Virus record (IMG/VR): IMGVR_UViG_2802429251_000009
Reading direction: 5' to 3' (one strand)
Length of the DNA: 32,209 nt
Source of the DNA: a virus
Taxonomy: Duplodnaviria; Heunggongvirae; Uroviricota; Caudoviricetes
Program-made: the position numbers and the translations under genes
Part shown: positions 667-32,209 of the stretch, in pieces
Layout: every line of letters starts with the position of its first letter
Numbering within the stretch: the stretch's first letter is position 1
The notes under the pieces: generated by a model
The model's database searches: none
Told to the model about the DNA's origin: nothing
Seen by the model: the letters and a program-made list of their open reading frames with translations, nothing else

Positions 667-695
667 AAAAAATAAGCCCGTGTAAGGGCGTTTTT
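667..695. other. Prophage left attachment site core (attL), P2-type
   Basis: AAAAAATAAGCCCGTGTAAGGG matches the first 22 nt of the P2 27-bp att core as I recall it (AAAAAATAAGCCCGTGTAAGGGAGATT); it lies about 80 bp beyond the integrase 3' end, as in P2 attL. Confidence 0.5.
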
Positions 696-772: not shown

Positions 773-1780
773 CTACCCTACTGTGGACACAGTGTGGACA
801 CTCATGGAGTCAACGCCACCACGTAGCGGATTGAGTGAAACAGCATCCTGAAGATACTCCGGGGCAAAGTGCGCATAGACCATTGTCTGCTCTATGCGTG
901 AATGTCCCAGTATTCTCTGCAGGGTGATGATACTCCCGCCGTTAATCATAAAGTGGGTAGCAAAACTGTGACGCAATGCGTGAGTTGCTTGCCCGTCCGG
1001 TAGATCTGGTTTTACATCTTTCATTGTTCGCCTGAACTTCGGATATGAGGCATCAGGGAACAGATAACCTTTACCCGCAATCATTACAGCAACTTCCTCA
1101 GAGATAGGGACTGTGCGCGGTTTGTTCGTCTTTGTTTTAACGAACGTCACCCGATTCTGTATTACGTTCTCAGCTTTCAGTTTCGCGGCTTCACCCCATC
1201 GAGCGCCGGTACTTAAACAGAGGATCGCGATTTTCTTGTTGTCCCCGTCAAGATTGGCAAGTAACAATGTTATTTCTTCCTGCGTCAGATAGCCTGTTTC
1301 TGGTTTCTGCTCCTTGAGCTTTTTCATCCCTCTGAAAGGGTGTTCGCCAAAAAACAGTTCCGCATCAATTAGCGCAGTAAACATACCACTCAGGCAGGTA
1401 AGGTCGCGGTTAATACTGGCCGGTTTTATGCCTTGCCCTCTGCGAGTCATGCTGTACTGGCTAATAAGCGCTTTGGTTATCTGGAACGCGCAAGGGTCAT
1501 CAGTGATCCGGGTAAAGATTTCAATCTTACCCAAATTGGATTTTCCGTGTTCTTCATGCTTGCCTTTCAGATCCCACCAGACTTTTGTTAATTCAGACAG
1601 ATGCCGCTTATCTGTCGGTTTAGCTAGCCATTCTTTATCGTGATGGTTGTATTGAGTGTGTTTCTCAAAAGCTACAGCCTCACTTTTCTTGTCAAATTTC
1701 CTGCGGATGCGCTTTCCGTTGCGCCCTGCAGGTCTGATATCCACTTCATAACGACCATCATCGAGTTTCTTAATTGTCAT
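773..1780 (-). CDS. int: Tyrosine recombinase, P2-type integrase
   Basis: 335 aa; C-terminal catalytic region HALRHSFATHFMINGGSIITLQRILGHSRIEQTMVYAHF (R..H-x-x-R...Y motifs); sits next to the att core and the C repressor. Confidence 0.9.
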   Translation of the reverse strand: MTIKKLDDGRYEVDIRPAGRNGKRIRRKFDKKSEAVAFEKHTQYNHHDKEWLAKPTDKRHLSELTKVWWDLKGKHEEHGKSNLGKIEIFTRITDDPCAFQITKALISQYSMTRRGQGIKPASINRDLTCLSGMFTALIDAELFFGEHPFRGMKKLKEQKPETGYLTQEEITLLLANLDGDNKKIAILCLSTGARWGEAAKLKAENVIQNRVTFVKTKTNKPRTVPISEEVAVMIAGKGYLFPDASYPKFRRTMKDVKPDLPDGQATHALRHSFATHFMINGGSIITLQRILGHSRIEQTMVYAHFAPEYLQDAVSLNPLRGGVDSMSVHTVSTVG

Positions 1781-4306: not shown

Positions 4307-5272
4307 ATGATTCGATCTCTCGTTAAATGGCCCGGTGGTAAAGGCCGCGTTATGCCTGATTTGCTGCCGATTCTGCCGAAAGCCGATTGCCTGGTGGAAC
4401 CGTTTGTCGGCGGTGCTTCTGTTTTCCTCAATACTGAATATCGCCGTTATATCCTGGGTGATATCAACCCAGATTTAATTAACCTGTATCGCCAGATAAC
4501 CCGCTGGCCTGATGCGGTGATCGACGCTGCTCGCCCACTGTTTAAAGTGTACGGCGATAAAGACGGCTATAAGTGGATCCGCGATGATTTCAACGCCCGC
4601 GCCCGTGACCTACTGTCATTGCGCAGTGTGTTTGAAGATGGGCCGGACGCGGGCAAGATTCTTCGTGCAGCACAATTTCTTTACCTGAACCGTCACGGAT
4701 ATAACGGCGTAGTACGCTACAACCAACAGGGTGGATATAACGTTCCCTTTGGGCGTCACAAAACCCCGCCTTACTTCCCGGAAGAACAAATCCGTTTATT
4801 CTCTGAAAAAGCTAACGACACGAAAGCTATTTTCGTGTGCTGCGATTTCCAGAGCACGTTAAAAATCATGATTGGTAGTGACGCGGTTATCTATTGCGAT
4901 CCGCCATATCTGCCAACAAGCGAAACCGCTAATTTCACCCAATACCACACCGCCCCGTTTGGGATTAAAGAGCATCGCCAGTTAGCTGCCGCTCAGCTGG
5001 ATATTAACCGCCTTACTGGTTCGCCGGTGATCCTGTCTAATAGCGACACCCCAGCCACCCGCGAGATTTATCGCTCTTTCAACTTCCAGGAAATTATCGT
5101 TAACCGTTCTGTCAGCGCGAACGCCATTACCAGAGGGGCCGCCAGTGAAGTGATCGGCGTCCTCAAAGTCTGCGCGACTTGTCGCCGTGCCGGTGGTGGG
5201 TGCTGTCCTGACTGCGGCCCTTGTGCTGGTTATTCCGTGTGGGGTGGAGCGGCTGACGAGGTGCTCTTCTGA
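4307..5272 (+). CDS. dam: DNA adenine methyltransferase (Dam family, GATC-type) with a Cys/Gly-rich C-terminal extension
   Basis: N-terminal KWPGGK motif, catalytic DPPY motif and a C-terminal NRSVSAN region parallel E. coli Dam; about 40 extra C-terminal residues (CATCRRAGGGCCPDCGPC). Confidence 0.85.
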   Translation: MIRSLVKWPGGKGRVMPDLLPILPKADCLVEPFVGGASVFLNTEYRRYILGDINPDLINLYRQITRWPDAVIDAARPLFKVYGDKDGYKWIRDDFNARARDLLSLRSVFEDGPDAGKILRAAQFLYLNRHGYNGVVRYNQQGGYNVPFGRHKTPPYFPEEQIRLFSEKANDTKAIFVCCDFQSTLKIMIGSDAVIYCDPPYLPTSETANFTQYHTAPFGIKEHRQLAAAQLDINRLTGSPVILSNSDTPATREIYRSFNFQEIIVNRSVSANAITRGAASEVIGVLKVCATCRRAGGGCCPDCGPCAGYSVWGGAADEVLF

Positions 5273-8323: not shown

Positions 8324-9373
8324 ATGGTTGATATAGAAGAAGTTATTACTAAGAAAAGAAATTCATTAAAGGCCGATCGTTTAGATATGTCTTTTGGTGA
8401 ATTGATGAATATGTTTGAAGACGGAGATTTATTCATCACTCCTGAATATCAAAGGGCATTTCGTTGGTCTAATTTTCAACAAACAAGATTTATTGAGTCT
8501 GTTTTATTGGGAATACCGATCCCCCCGATTTTTGTAGCAGAAGATGATAAGGGAAAATGGGAGGTTGTTGATGGCTTACAGCGTATATCAACAATTTTTT
8601 CATTTTTTGGTGTTCTTACTAATCTCCCAGAAAAAAACAACCTGAAACTATGCAAAGGAGAAATGGTTGCCGAGTTAGAAAATATAACTATTGATGCTCT
8701 TCCAATCAGATTAAAAACAACCATTAAAAGAGCAGTTTGTAGAGTTGAGATTGTTCGCTGGGATAGTAACGAAGATATTAGGTATGAACTATTTAATCGA
8801 CTGAATACAGGGGCTAGCCCGTTATCTGATCAAGAGATAAGAAACTGTATTTTTAGATCATACCCTGTTGATTTAAATAAAATATTGCGTGAAATTGCAG
8901 TTATGCCAAATTTCATTGAGTTGATTAACCCTTCAGCAGCTAAAAAAGAAGAAATGTTTTTAGAGGAGTTAGTGCTTCGCTATTTTGCTTTTAAACATTT
9001 TGATGGTGATTTTAATACTACTGTTCCTAATTTCCTTTCAGACTTCATGCGCTCCGTGTCGAAAGGTGACATTGCTTTTGATTTAGATTGTGAAAAAAAA
9101 TCATTTGTTGAGTTAATTGATTTCTTAATATCTCATGGCGGCAAGGAGTTATTTAGACCTAATGGACCTTTTGCCTTACATCTTTTTGATTCTATATCAT
9201 ACGCTTTGCCAAAAGTATTCGATACTGTCATTGGTAATGAGCAAAAAATTACAGAAGCTATAAATACATTGCTTACTGACGAAAAATATCAAAGTATTAG
9301 CGTGCTCACATTCTCAACTGCACGTACTCGTAATCGGATGGATCGAGCTTTAGAGATTTTCAAAAGTGCATAG
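8324..9373 (+). CDS. DUF262 (ParB/GmrS-N-like) domain protein without an HNH/DUF1524 domain; candidate defence-system component
   Basis: N-terminal signature ITPEYQRAFRWSNFQQTRFIESVLLGIPIPPIF...KWEVVDGLQRISTI; GGAG SD 7 nt upstream; strongly AT-rich; no H-N-H motif seen in the C-terminal half. Confidence 0.75.
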   Translation: MVDIEEVITKKRNSLKADRLDMSFGELMNMFEDGDLFITPEYQRAFRWSNFQQTRFIESVLLGIPIPPIFVAEDDKGKWEVVDGLQRISTIFSFFGVLTNLPEKNNLKLCKGEMVAELENITIDALPIRLKTTIKRAVCRVEIVRWDSNEDIRYELFNRLNTGASPLSDQEIRNCIFRSYPVDLNKILREIAVMPNFIELINPSAAKKEEMFLEELVLRYFAFKHFDGDFNTTVPNFLSDFMRSVSKGDIAFDLDCEKKSFVELIDFLISHGGKELFRPNGPFALHLFDSISYALPKVFDTVIGNEQKITEAINTLLTDEKYQSISVLTFSTARTRNRMDRALEIFKSA

Positions 9374-9986
9374 TTTAGTGGCTGAAATTTATGAAACAAA
9401 CTCCTGGCGAGATGGGGAGTTTGCTAAATTTAGAGTCAACCCCCATCAAGTAGACCCTGTTTTATGGGGGCGGATGTGTGTACCGATGATTTATGCAAAC
9501 TGGGAGGGTTTTGTAGTTAGTTCATTAAAAATGCTTTTAAAGCATTTAAATAAATTAGAACTAACCCCATTACAAATACCTACTAGATTAGTTGTAGTTG
9601 GATTAGGTGACACATATAGAAGTTTAAGTGGGAAGCAATCATTTGAACAACGATGTGAGTTCACTGATAAATTTAATGAGTTATTAAAAAAAACCGTTAA
9701 ATTTAAGACAAAAATTGAAACTAAATCGAATTTGCATAGTGGTGTATTGAAAGAACTATGTCAAATGTTTGCTTTTGATTTTGAAAGATTTAGTGACGTA
9801 ACTGTTACTCTAGATCGTCTTGTTCAAGTGAGAAACTGTATTGCACATGGAGAAAACTCGATTTTACCAACTCAGGAAAATATTGAGTTATACATCGATG
9901 CAGTGAAAGCAGCAATTGATATCATGTTAGAAGAAATTGACTTGTTTTTAACGCAAGAAAGTTATTTATATAAACAGCAAGCCTAA
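9366..9986 (+). CDS. Small protein with HEPN-like Rx4H motif (RNCIAHGE); candidate effector partner of the DUF262 protein
   Basis: GTG start overlaps the upstream stop by 8 nt (coupled); alternative in-frame ATG at 9474. The motif assignment is by eye only. Confidence 0.5.
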   Translation: MHSLVAEIYETNSWRDGEFAKFRVNPHQVDPVLWGRMCVPMIYANWEGFVVSSLKMLLKHLNKLELTPLQIPTRLVVVGLGDTYRSLSGKQSFEQRCEFTDKFNELLKKTVKFKTKIETKSNLHSGVLKELCQMFAFDFERFSDVTVTLDRLVQVRNCIAHGENSILPTQENIELYIDAVKAAIDIMLEEIDLFLTQESYLYKQQA

Positions 9987-28936: not shown

Positions 28937-30661
28937 ATGAAACCAATTAAACGCCTGTACCTTTCCTCTGATCCGGTCCATCTGATTGACTGCAATATCG
29001 TGCTGGAGCTGAACGCGTGCGGTCGGGGGTTTATTACGGCGGGGACAGAGACAGATTACACCGGCAAAATGGTGCGTATCGATGTTGGTTATGATGGTCT
29101 GGTCCTGCGCTGGTTTACCGGATACGTCGAACGGTCACAGCCTGCTGATAATGGAACATGCCGGTTGTTCGTGCGTGAGCTGGTCGGCATCTTTGATAAA
29201 TTGTGGCCGTGTTCTTTCCAGCATCCAACGTTGCGCCAGATTACTGACTGGATAAGTGAGCAAAGCGGGCTGACCGTCACAACGCCGGTCGGCGCTGCTT
29301 ATGCAGATAAACCGATCCCCCACTTTACGCACAGCGGCACGGGCTACCAGCTTTTTGCCAGTCTGGGCCGAGCATTTTCAGTGACGGATTATCTTTGGTA
29401 TCAGCTGCCGGACGGGGATGTCTTCGTCGGTGCTGCTGAGCACAGTCTTTTTGCGGGTAAACCAGTAGAGATCCCGCACGAATTTAGCCAGGCATCGGCG
29501 GGCGGCAATTCAATGGTTGTGCCGATGATTCAGAGCCTGCGCCCGGGTGCTGAGGTGAACGGCCAGCGGTTAAACCAGGTCCGGCTAAATAACGACGACA
29601 TGACAATCACCTGGCAGCCATGCAACAAAGCCAACGGCCAGCCATTGCAAAAATCACCCATTCAGCGGCAGATTGAAAACGCATTCCCGGAGCTGGCAAG
29701 CGGCCTGCATCTTCCAAAATTCGCCAGGGTGGAAGCGCCAAGCGAGGATGTTTCAGGGGGTAATATTGCCGATCCATTCCGCCCGCGCTATGCCGTGGAT
29801 CTCCAGCTGCTTGACGAATACGGCAAGCCAGCCGCAAATACGCCGGTTTATTCTGCCGTTCCGCTACCTGTACCAATGGCGGGCAGCGAGTCGGGAATGT
29901 TCCAGTTTCCGCCCCCTGGCACGCTGGTTGAAATCGGGTTCACTGAGGGGCGGCAGGATAAGCCCTTCGTGCGCCAGATTATGGCGGAGGGTCATAACCT
30001 GCCAGCGGTTAAACCCGGCGAGCAGTTGCAGCAACAGCGCGATGGTGTATCGCAGCGCGTGACGGTTGCCGGAGACTGGGAACGCCAGACGGACCAGACA
30101 ATCCGCGAAAACTCCATGATGCGCGAAGTCACCACCGACGAAGAGATCCGCAAAGTGGTTGTCCGTGAAACTACGGTCCAGGCAACGGATAAAACAACCG
30201 TGCTTGGCACGGCCACTCTTCTGGCCGGGGCGGTGGTCCATATCAGCGAGGGTGATTACAGTATCGGCACATCCGGCAACCTGACAGTAACCTGCAGCAA
30301 GGACAATTCCGTCAGTGTTGGCCGGAACGCAAAACGGGACGTCGCGGGCGATGTTACAGACGACGTGAAAGGGAATGTCACGTCAAACGTCAGCGGCGCA
30401 CTGACTGAGAAAATCAGCGGTATCCGCCGAAGTGTGGCCCAGGCGCAACAGCTGATTGCCCCGGTGGTAAAACTGGGAAGCGAAGAGATTAACGTCCTGA
30501 CACTACTCACCGACACCCTGGACGTGGTGAGGGAACTGGCAGAGACTGCCGCGTCACATACTCACCCCAACACAGGGGCCAGCGGGCAGGCTGCGCAGTT
30601 CAGCGCAACGGCCACTAAAACCGGTACATTGAAAAGCAAATACGGTCCCCTGATAGCCTGA
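28937..30661 (+). CDS. Putative baseplate hub / central spike protein (gpD-gpV-like, VgrG-like fusion)
   Basis: 574 aa; C-terminal third has repetitive V/T/D/G-rich beta-helix-like segments and an HTHPNTG (H-x-H) motif near the end, as at spike apexes; last gene of the tail cluster. Confidence 0.45.
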   Translation: MKPIKRLYLSSDPVHLIDCNIVLELNACGRGFITAGTETDYTGKMVRIDVGYDGLVLRWFTGYVERSQPADNGTCRLFVRELVGIFDKLWPCSFQHPTLRQITDWISEQSGLTVTTPVGAAYADKPIPHFTHSGTGYQLFASLGRAFSVTDYLWYQLPDGDVFVGAAEHSLFAGKPVEIPHEFSQASAGGNSMVVPMIQSLRPGAEVNGQRLNQVRLNNDDMTITWQPCNKANGQPLQKSPIQRQIENAFPELASGLHLPKFARVEAPSEDVSGGNIADPFRPRYAVDLQLLDEYGKPAANTPVYSAVPLPVPMAGSESGMFQFPPPGTLVEIGFTEGRQDKPFVRQIMAEGHNLPAVKPGEQLQQQRDGVSQRVTVAGDWERQTDQTIRENSMMREVTTDEEIRKVVVRETTVQATDKTTVLGTATLLAGAVVHISEGDYSIGTSGNLTVTCSKDNSVSVGRNAKRDVAGDVTDDVKGNVTSNVSGALTEKISGIRRSVAQAQQLIAPVVKLGSEEINVLTLLTDTLDVVRELAETAASHTHPNTGASGQAAQFSATATKTGTLKSKYGPLIA

Positions 30662-30854
30662 CAAAAACGGCATTACCGCACACCTCACCAGACACCACAG
30701 AACGCGCCACAGCAGGCGCAAATATTAAAGGTCGCCACCGTGCGGCCTTTCTTTCGTTTGTTCAACAGCGGCCCACAGCGTAAGCGACAGCAGGCAGACG
30801 GAAGCGGATCCAAGACGGAAACGGCGCTACACCGCACCCGCCTGCGCAGTTTGG

Positions 30855-30966
30855 ATCATAAAAATTTTGCAAAAGAAATTTTGTGCAAAGCACCCCGCCA
30901 GCCTGCGCCGCTGCTGGGCTTTTGCATCCTGCGGGCGTTTGCACTCTGCGCAAAGATTTGCAGCAC
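30855..30966. repeat. Cluster of TTTGCA-containing motifs, including the 10-bp palindrome TTTTGCAAAA
   Basis: TTTGCA at ~30856, 30911, 30928, 30948 and 30958, plus GCAAAG variants at ~30871 and 30938; a third palindrome copy at ~31144-31153. Read directly. Confidence 0.5.
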
Positions 30967-31243
30967 TTTGCAAAAGTCACCGCGTCGCCAGTCGCTAACC
31001 GACTGGATAACATGATGTTTTTAAAAGGATCGTTTTAGTTTCCGTGACGATCAAAATGATTCGGTTGTATCCGATGGTTTTCGGGGGCGGATATTGTGAA
31101 GCCTTGTGCGGCGCGGGCTGGCGGCTAGTTTGCTTTTATTTGGGTTTTGCAAAATGATGCACGAAGTTTTGATAAAAGGATCTCTAGCTAAGGGGGAGGG
31201 AACGTATAAAAACCCCCGCCCTCTGGGTGATATTTTGTTCTAT

Positions 31244-32209
31244 TTATAGAAGTTTACTTACTGAAATCAGTTTGGGAGATTTAATGCCAATCTCACATAA
31301 TGTTGTATGATGTGCTTCACGCTCAGTTTCCTGATAATAGGTGGCTATCCATTCCGTATTTTTACTAACAATGCTATGTATAAAAGAAAAGTAGGGAACA
31401 TCTACAGATGATAACGAATGGCCGATGATGATGATTTCGTCTACGTTACTGAGATTTTTAAAAAATTTAGCGCTGTCAGCAATGACTTTTTCAGTATTCT
31501 TAAAAGAAGAAGTGAAGTATTTATTAATAGTCTGCTTTCCCATTTCATAAGAGTGATCGTAATTATCAGCCATCCACTGACGCCACTCTTCAAGTTCTTC
31601 ATCGGTTGCATTTTCGGGCGGGACTGCTTCCTTTTCTTCAAAGTTGATAGGGTCAATACCATGACCTAAAATCAACTGTTGATCTGATGATGCTTTCCCA
31701 TGAATATATAAAATTTGTCTATCATCAATACTATAATATTTCTGAAGAGTGTCAGTGTAATTAAAACTGATAAAGATAGAATCAGAATCGATACGCAATC
31801 TTTTTTTTAAATTAAGTTCGGGGTAGTTAACCTGCAATATAAATGACTTGAATTGTGTTAAAAGTCCCTCGGTTAAATTTTCTAGTATACGTTCCATTTC
31901 AATGGATAATGAGTTCCAGTCCCTGTCACGAAAATCGGGGCTGCTAATTTGGGGTAAAAGATAGCTAAACTCTTCGAGCACCGACTCTGTATCCAGACCC
32001 GCTAAGCTGTTTTCGAAATCAGACCAAAGAGAATGTTTTGACTTATCAACTGCGGAAAGAGAAGGGGGTAAGTCAGTAAATCCCATAAACTCAACCAAGT
32101 GATCGTAAATGTCTCGATCTTTCTTCCGAAGATAATCCCCAAATGAGAAATAGCTCGTGTCAAGTTCGTGATGCAGATCAAACCCATTCCCGATGATGTA
32201 TAGCTTCAT
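31244..32209 (-). CDS. AbiH-like abortive-infection family protein (candidate)
   Basis: N-terminus MKLYIIGNGFDLHHELDTSY matches the IIGNGFD motif I associate with the AbiH family; strongly AT-rich; ATG is the last codon position of the window, so the promoter lies outside. Confidence 0.5.
   Translation of the reverse strand: MKLYIIGNGFDLHHELDTSYFSFGDYLRKKDRDIYDHLVEFMGFTDLPPSLSAVDKSKHSLWSDFENSLAGLDTESVLEEFSYLLPQISSPDFRDRDWNSLSIEMERILENLTEGLLTQFKSFILQVNYPELNLKKRLRIDSDSIFISFNYTDTLQKYYSIDDRQILYIHGKASSDQQLILGHGIDPINFEEKEAVPPENATDEELEEWRQWMADNYDHSYEMGKQTINKYFTSSFKNTEKVIADSAKFFKNLSNVDEIIIIGHSLSSVDVPYFSFIHSIVSKNTEWIATYYQETEREAHHTTLCEIGIKSPKLISVSKLL

Follow-up and report, generated by a model that had tools for sequence, protein, structure and literature searches.

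A candidate SIR2-like AbiH defence gene in a variable slot beside the attachment site of a P2-type Escherichia coli prophage

AbiH proteins, antiphage SIR2 enzymes and P2-like hotspots

The prototype of the AbiH family is reportedly the AbiH protein of Lactococcus lactis, described by Prevots et al. in 1996. The protection given by a one-gene AbiH from Vibrio amounts to 5.7 orders of magnitude, and Tlaloc and Enki have been published as phage inhibitors of it (bioRxiv 10.1101/2024.06.14.598830). AbiH has been grouped with the antiphage SIR2 "SIRim" proteins (bioRxiv 10.1101/2024.09.18.613514), and a 2026 review states that it resembles sirtuins in HHpred comparisons and proposes NAD depletion; the same review lists the mechanism as "?", by which account no AbiH protein has a shown biochemical activity. 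The antiphage SIR2 NADases SIR2-HerA/Nezha, KomC of Kongming, ThsA of Thoeris, DSR2 and Avs5 SIR2 depend on a partner or a fused sensor, namely HerA, a SLOG domain with its gcADPR signal, the C-terminal domain of DSR2 and a STAND NTPase. P2-like prophages are reservoirs of defence hotspots (Rousset et al. 2022, PMC9122126; NAR 2026, PMC13586616); the hotspots listed for them include gpA-gpQ, int-att, int-primase, downstream of gpL and within the tail genes.

Here, we analysed 32,209 nucleotides of viral DNA (IMG/VR record IMGVR_UViG_2802429251_000009; hereafter "the window"), at the right end of which lies an AbiH gene. It shares with the rest of the family a full-length profile match, its nature as a single gene for a protein within the ~320-345 aa range, carriage by a mobile element, and an N-terminal hydrophobic strand with a GNGFD motif. 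Whereas lactococcal AbiH is chromosomal or ICE-associated according to the 2026 review, this allele is enterobacterial and carried by a P2-type prophage. Unlike the SIR2 NADases listed above, it stands alone, with no recognisable sensor and no detectable sequence-profile similarity to them. Its location resembles the P2-like hotspots in its size of ~1 kb, AT-richness, quick turnover, conserved phage anchors and content of a (here candidate) defence gene. It differs from the cos-adjacent gpA-gpQ hotspot in that it runs from a post-tail spacer to the attP arm opposite the integrase, and it may be subsumed under the "downstream of gpL" hotspot.

The AbiH gene and its family

The gene occupies 31244..32209 on the minus strand, from its ATG (32207-32209, the final three bases of the window) to a TAA stop codon (31244-31246), and encodes 321 aa that begin MKLYIIGNGFDLHH and are predicted to form a SIR2-like NAD-utilising effector. 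Its GC content is 0.369 (GC3 0.355), while the tail gene beside it stands at 0.565 and the entire window at 0.516, a deviation from its prophage neighbour of the kind that marks accessory cassettes. This neighbour, the last gene of the tail cluster (28937..30661, plus strand, 574 aa), is annotated as "baseplate protein" in phage SI7; the two genes are convergent and separated by 582 bp. The initial annotation of the sequence had described a strongly AT-rich minus-strand gene with an IIGNGFD-type N-terminus, convergent to the last tail gene and with its start codon at the window edge, and each of these features was borne out.

Family membership, which the initial annotation had suggested from the N-terminus and proposed to examine with the AbiH profile, is well founded. 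Pfam PF14253 (AbiH), the accession that the initial annotation had correctly given, matches with an E-value of 7.9e-62 and 210.1 bits (cut-off 30.9), residues 3-291 aligning with positions 1-260 of the 260 in the profile. The PADLOC AbiH model PDLC02345 also matches (E 1.3e-29), its best stretch comprising residues 118-308 only. Together, the full-length Pfam match and the PADLOC match rule out a chance ORF. A 96%-identical E. coli variant is labelled "bacteriophage abortive infection AbiH family protein" in RefSeq, a scan of NCBIfam with the protein gave no matching family, and the sole match in PHROGs is the unannotated family phrog_19951.

A database search returned 1,327 homologues at E<=1e-5, for each of which an AbiH domain had been precomputed; their sources include Gammaproteobacteria, Bacteroidota and Chlorobium. 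A 92%-identical Salmonella variant occupies the same slot as the gene studied here. Homologues of 57% identity lie in another type of island, where they adjoin HNH nucleases and have different neighbour genes; these (P0009, L059-L062) are the nearest distinct subfamily, found in Klebsiella and other hosts within CP4-57-like integrative islands that carry DUF932, antirestriction, RadC and CbeA genes, and on either side they have HNH and ScoMcrA-like nucleases and SymE, a different mobile context. More distant AbiH genes are found on conjugative plasmids. A tblastn search for AbiH homologues in 50,697 deposited phage records gave no match, and the BFVD collection of viral predicted structures yielded a single marginal match (E 3e-4). 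AbiH is thus absent from deposited phage genomes, although the prophage is apparently complete and its close relatives are free phages.

Prophage limits, cassette junctions and the variable slot

Positions 10000-31200 of the window are 93% covered, at ~95.3% identity, by the Salmonella phages SW5, SW3 and SI7. These members of Irrigatiovirus were isolated from water, so this type of phage is known as free virions, and their genes follow the same order as those of the prophage, with the last tail gene and the subsequent spacer in common. An integrase and a Phage_GPA protein, both recognised by Pfam, together with an att core at the 3' end of CyaR, add P2-type modules. Judged by its sequence, the host element is a P2-type (Peduoviridae, Irrigatiovirus-like) E. 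coli prophage. Its early region contains a Dam-like D12-class N6-adenine DNA methyltransferase (4307-5272; Pfam 2.1e-57, PADLOC orphan MTase 2.7e-87), which probably provides anti-restriction self-methylation and of which SI7 has one too. The canonical P2 gpA-gpQ hotspot (8324-9986) carries an AT-rich (GC 0.31-0.37) cargo of two overlapping genes, the first coding for a GmrSD_N/DUF262 protein (Pfam 2.2e-27; PADLOC NsnA 1.6e-66, PD-T4-2_A 1.3e-47) and the second for a RiboL-PSP HEPN protein (Pfam 6.6e-21); this pair is presumably the "first" defence cargo to which AbiH had been counted as the second.

One public contig (L007) is identical to the window across the last 10 kb of the latter and was therefore used as its rightward extension. 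Beyond the ATG of AbiH come 74 bp that phages lacking the gene do not have, a strong hairpin (AAACCCCG...CGGGGTTT, followed by a U-run; region z -2.5), arm-type repeats and a 22-bp core. The repeats are direct repeats of TGTGGTCA and TGTGGACA; the same kind flanks the integrase side (window ~783-802), and we interpret them as putative integrase arm sites. The core, AAAAAATAAGCCCGTGTAAGGG, is found at 667-688 (plus strand; attL) and in identical form at L007 9814-9835, 166-187 bp past the window end (attR), where it lies between AbiH and cyaR/yegQ. In sequence it is the terminator of CyaR, an sRNA matched over its full length by Rfam RF00112 (100.7 bits); yegQ comes next. CyaR itself (L007 9747-9832) is restored intact at attR, 169 bp 5' of the AbiH ATG and co-directional with it. 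At the left end of the prophage is a tyrosine integrase (773..1780, minus strand; Pfam Int_N and Phage_integrase), with the TGTGGACA repeats at about 783-802. Positions 1-318 of the window belong to the left-flank gene, E. coli yegR, and the host flank matches E. coli at 99% identity. In E. coli AH01, the unoccupied attB consists of yegR, core/cyaR and yegQ joined exactly at the core, without AbiH. The integration site of the prophage is thus the 3' end of cyaR, an sRNA gene located between yegR and yegQ, and the position of the core and the empty attB place AbiH inside the att-delimited prophage as its last gene before attR. Extension to the right had been proposed to find attR and partner genes of AbiH; it led to attR, in keeping with the claim that the gene is near the right end of the prophage, and to no partner.

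The position at the window edge, taken alone, would also allow AbiH to be a resident gene of a chromosomal island by yegQ, or half of a multi-gene system with an unseen partner. The att core, however, separates AbiH from cyaR/yegQ, the empty attB of AH01 lacks the gene, and the arm repeats between AbiH and the core are also present in L017, a relative that has no AbiH. The order yegQ, 336-bp gap, AbiH and 574-aa tail gene recurs in 8/8 representative places (24 contigs summarised), and neither L007 nor the 24 contigs hold a partner gene in the right flank, the 336 bp between AbiH and yegQ containing CyaR and no ORF. The likelihood of either arrangement is close to nil, and on the evidence of the att site and the flank we rejected both. 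On the host side of the att site, yegP and yegQ have a ParDE type II toxin-antitoxin pair between them in some host backgrounds of this prophage (L001 15413-16007, L004 7606-8200) and not in others (L003, L005), a polymorphism of the host rather than of the prophage.

Comparison with AbiH-less relatives delimited the insertion. AbiH is missing from SI7, SW3 and SW5, all of which have the spacer after the tail gene; in SI7 the order is spacer, a 69-aa ORF (gp26) and integrase. It is also missing from L017, an E. coli relative from IMG/VR that shares the cyaR/yegQ site and has a tail protein 99% and a host flank 99.8% identical. In blastn, homology between the extended window and L017 runs to 31218 and begins again 74 bp past the window end, the two alignments overlapping by 9 bp; this defines an AbiH cassette of ~1,065 bp (31219..32209, no strand assigned, plus the 74 bp). 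The left junction repeat, AAAAACCCCCG (31208..31218, plus strand), has a near-copy, AAAACCCCG, at the right junction, 74-83 bp past the window end (L007 9918-9926), so that the cassette has a direct repeat of 9-11 bp, AAAA(A)CCCC(C)G, on either side. In AbiH-less phages, the conserved spacer ends with a terminator-like hairpin, AAAACCCCG-TTTGTGG-ACGGGGTTTG (in another rendering, AAAACCCCG...CGGGGTTTG), of which the repeat makes up the 5' half. The cassette is inserted in the 5' half of the hairpin, and the hairpin has thereby come to lie directly upstream of AbiH. Since the junction repeat is half of the hairpin, these sequences suggest that the cassette was inserted by recombination at the hairpin. 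The absence of AbiH from phages that are ~95% identical and from L017, along with its deviant GC content, shows that it is cargo, as had been claimed, and not a conserved core phage gene. That the gene is an intact member of the AbiH family and cargo is as good as certain.

The left anchor of the slot is a conserved non-coding spacer of ~560 bp (30662..31218, no strand assigned), which in an alignment of 10 relatives is conserved in blocks even where the tail protein is only ~65% identical. The spacer carries the invariant palindromic boxes TTTTGCAAAA, TTGYGCAA and TTTGCAC and a GTTTTTAAAAGGATCGTTTTACTTTCCGTCACGATC block, and three of the four TTTGCAAA octamers in the window fall within it. 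Just past the last tail gene is an intrinsic-terminator-like hairpin, AAAGGTCGCCACCGTGCGGCCTTT followed by CTTTCGTTTG (30727..30760, plus strand; L007 11483-11460), which is conserved in the alignment. The spacer has no match in Rfam, even at E<=1, and its two ORFs, of 83 aa and 91 aa on opposite strands, look spurious. It could be an array of regulator-binding sites or a non-coding RNA.

The contents of the slot were read downstream of the tail protein in 47 relatives fetched with that protein (5 loci in genome contigs, 42 in IMG/VR). The slot holds AbiH in seven loci in addition to the window. In five loci (L012, L020, L032, L043, L056) it holds a 169-aa Zn-ribbon protein with a single transmembrane segment; this protein, found in different hosts ~513-1022 bp past the tail gene, has no defence annotation. 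Elsewhere the slot is occupied by a PD-T4-10_B-like protein (PADLOC 1.9e-31; L041 7420-8121, where the contig ends), a hexapeptide-repeat protein (L044), two membrane proteins of GC 0.31 (L053), or a 206-aa protein with small neighbours (L049, L051), and it is empty in L017, L021, SI7, L013, L014, L029 and others. Because relatives have nothing at this place or carry other AT-rich genes, in no fewer than six alternative versions, the slot is variable in its cargo, and the suggestion of a second cargo hotspot near the right end of the prophage thus holds. The stretch from the conserved spacer to the att arm could serve as an anchor for mining further cargo in this group of phages.

The variety of these contents also bears on what AbiH is for. 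Slot occupants such as the Zn-ribbon membrane protein, a lipoprotein and the hexapeptide transferase have no recognisable defence identity, and P2 hotspot systems can target other P2-like phages (PMC9122126), both of which would agree with a benefit that consists in excluding closely related P2-like phages or P4-like satellites, or in a lysogenic conversion unrelated to phages. The AbiH name and the sole test of a Gram-negative homologue, however, concern defence against lytic phages, the PADLOC AbiH model matches the protein, and close homologues adjoin HNH nucleases in the defence contexts of islands. We consider such other benefits unlikely, and by analogy with the known members of the family a role of this allele in defence is likely.

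Predicted fold, proposed role and expression

In sirtuins, the NAD pocket is built from the GAG, QNID, H-x-HG and GTS motifs, which also provide the catalytic Asn and His residues. The AbiH protein may have a comparable series. An AlphaFold (AF2) model built from 45 homologues has a pLDDT of 93.6 and a pTM of 0.88, and in all 45 of them (43-96% identity) G7-N8-G9-F10-D11, F149-N150-Y151-T152, H170 and G263-H264-S265 are invariant. Every invariant motif follows a beta strand of the model, and their order is co-linear with that of GAG48, QN129-130 (QNID), the H-x-HG motif (IHMHG, after QNID) and GTS214 in CobB. From motif order and context, we infer that N150 and H170 are candidate catalytic residues; H183, a second invariant histidine, is an alternative candidate to H170. 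The model also contains two helical insertions, at residues ~14-144 and ~187-255. In a Foldseek search against the PDB, antiphage SIR2 proteins ranked at the top without reaching significance (best E 0.013, TM <=0.39), and there was no match at E<=0.001. On this model, the AbiH protein is predicted to be a SIR2-like Rossmann fold, closest to the antiphage NADases.

Searches by sequence gave no such relationship. The protein has no match to Pfam SIR2 or SIR2_2 at E<=1, and hmmsearch with the AbiH alignment against PDB sequences returned chance-level matches only, with no SIR2 chain among them, from which it follows that no solved AbiH structure exists. Aligned to E. coli CobB with hhalign, the AbiH profile scored a probability of 0.2% and was out of register, a weak test given the single-sequence template. 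With respect to chemistry, we lean, if only slightly, towards NADase activity, by analogy with the antiphage SIR2 enzymes. A SIR2-like domain might instead ADP-ribosylate or deacylate a phage or host target, as in SirTM-type sirtuins, with no depletion of NAD+; this we consider possible and a good deal less probable.

We therefore describe the NAD+-consuming scheme further. AbiH would be a single-protein anti-phage effector, borne on a ~1,065-bp AT-rich accessory "moron" cassette. The cassette lies within the slot between the post-tail spacer and the integrase-binding att arm and would hence travel with the phage genome. For lysogen expression, the anti-phage activity of the allele and NAD+ hydrolysis alike, the scheme is what we infer: the lysogen would make AbiH at a low level, infection by another phage would activate it, and the activated protein would consume NAD+, so that replication of the incoming phage stops and the infected cell is sacrificed (abortive infection). 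The lysogen population and the resident prophage would thereby be protected. Taken as a whole, a prophage-borne, stand-alone SIR2-like AbiH that aborts infection through NAD+ consumption is in our view the probable reading of the locus.

Promoter matches around the gene are only weak. No convincing sigma-70 promoter was found in the cassette-specific 74 bp upstream, and the best sigma-70-like match (9/12) lies upstream of the terminator-like hairpin. Hairpins flank the cassette, the downstream one being without a clear U-run in the AbiH sense, and terminator folds around the AbiH stop codon are no better than those of shuffled sequence (z -0.1, -0.3). The only elements separating AbiH from CyaR are the terminator of the latter (the att core) and a second hairpin, placed there by insertion of the cassette. 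Given so little in between and no convincing promoter in the cassette, AbiH might be expressed through its integration, mainly by read-through from the CRP-cAMP-dependent cyaR promoter or from a weak promoter in the att arm, an arrangement that we rate as quite unlikely. Under such read-through, the dose of AbiH would vary with the state of integration and with the physiology of the host, and the expression of a stand-alone SIR2 effector, whose helical insertions would serve to sense phages, would be tied to a host sRNA locus.

The same features, namely no clear promoter in the 74 bp of the cassette and a strong hairpin with a U-run just upstream, would fit a silent or decaying passenger, an ORF that looks intact and is unexpressed or non-functional. 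Against this, the exact protein is found in 116 blocks of a public assembly collection and its gene was present with an intact ORF in all 24 contigs read, as it is in the 96%- and 92%-identical variants. Among 5,426 complete E. coli genomes, AbiH and the tail-gene end of the prophage co-occur in the same 19, a fixed association in which every genome with that end has retained AbiH. A GGAG ribosome-binding site stands 8 nt 5' of the ATG, and every residue invariant in the family is kept. The dN/dS among three AbiH alleles is 0.36-0.39, a value based on just 30-53 differences; at ~0.37 it indicates purifying selection, though of only moderate strength, and is consistent with a maintained function. 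A passenger is, on these grounds, very improbable.

Much of what we describe is already known: the AbiH family itself, a validated homologue in Vibrio and a 96%-identical variant annotated in RefSeq. This is an ordinary finding, and the AbiH cassette leaves the current understanding of phage defence unchanged. What is mildly new is the exact extent of the slot, which in Irrigatiovirus-type phages runs from the conserved spacer to the att arm, along with the mapped junctions of the cassette and the absence of AbiH from deposited phages. The locus provides a well-delimited example of a stand-alone SIR2-like candidate defence gene, with mapped junctions, in genetically tractable E. coli. This allele could conveniently be used to ask how infection is sensed by a SIR2 effector that has neither a partner nor a fused sensor.
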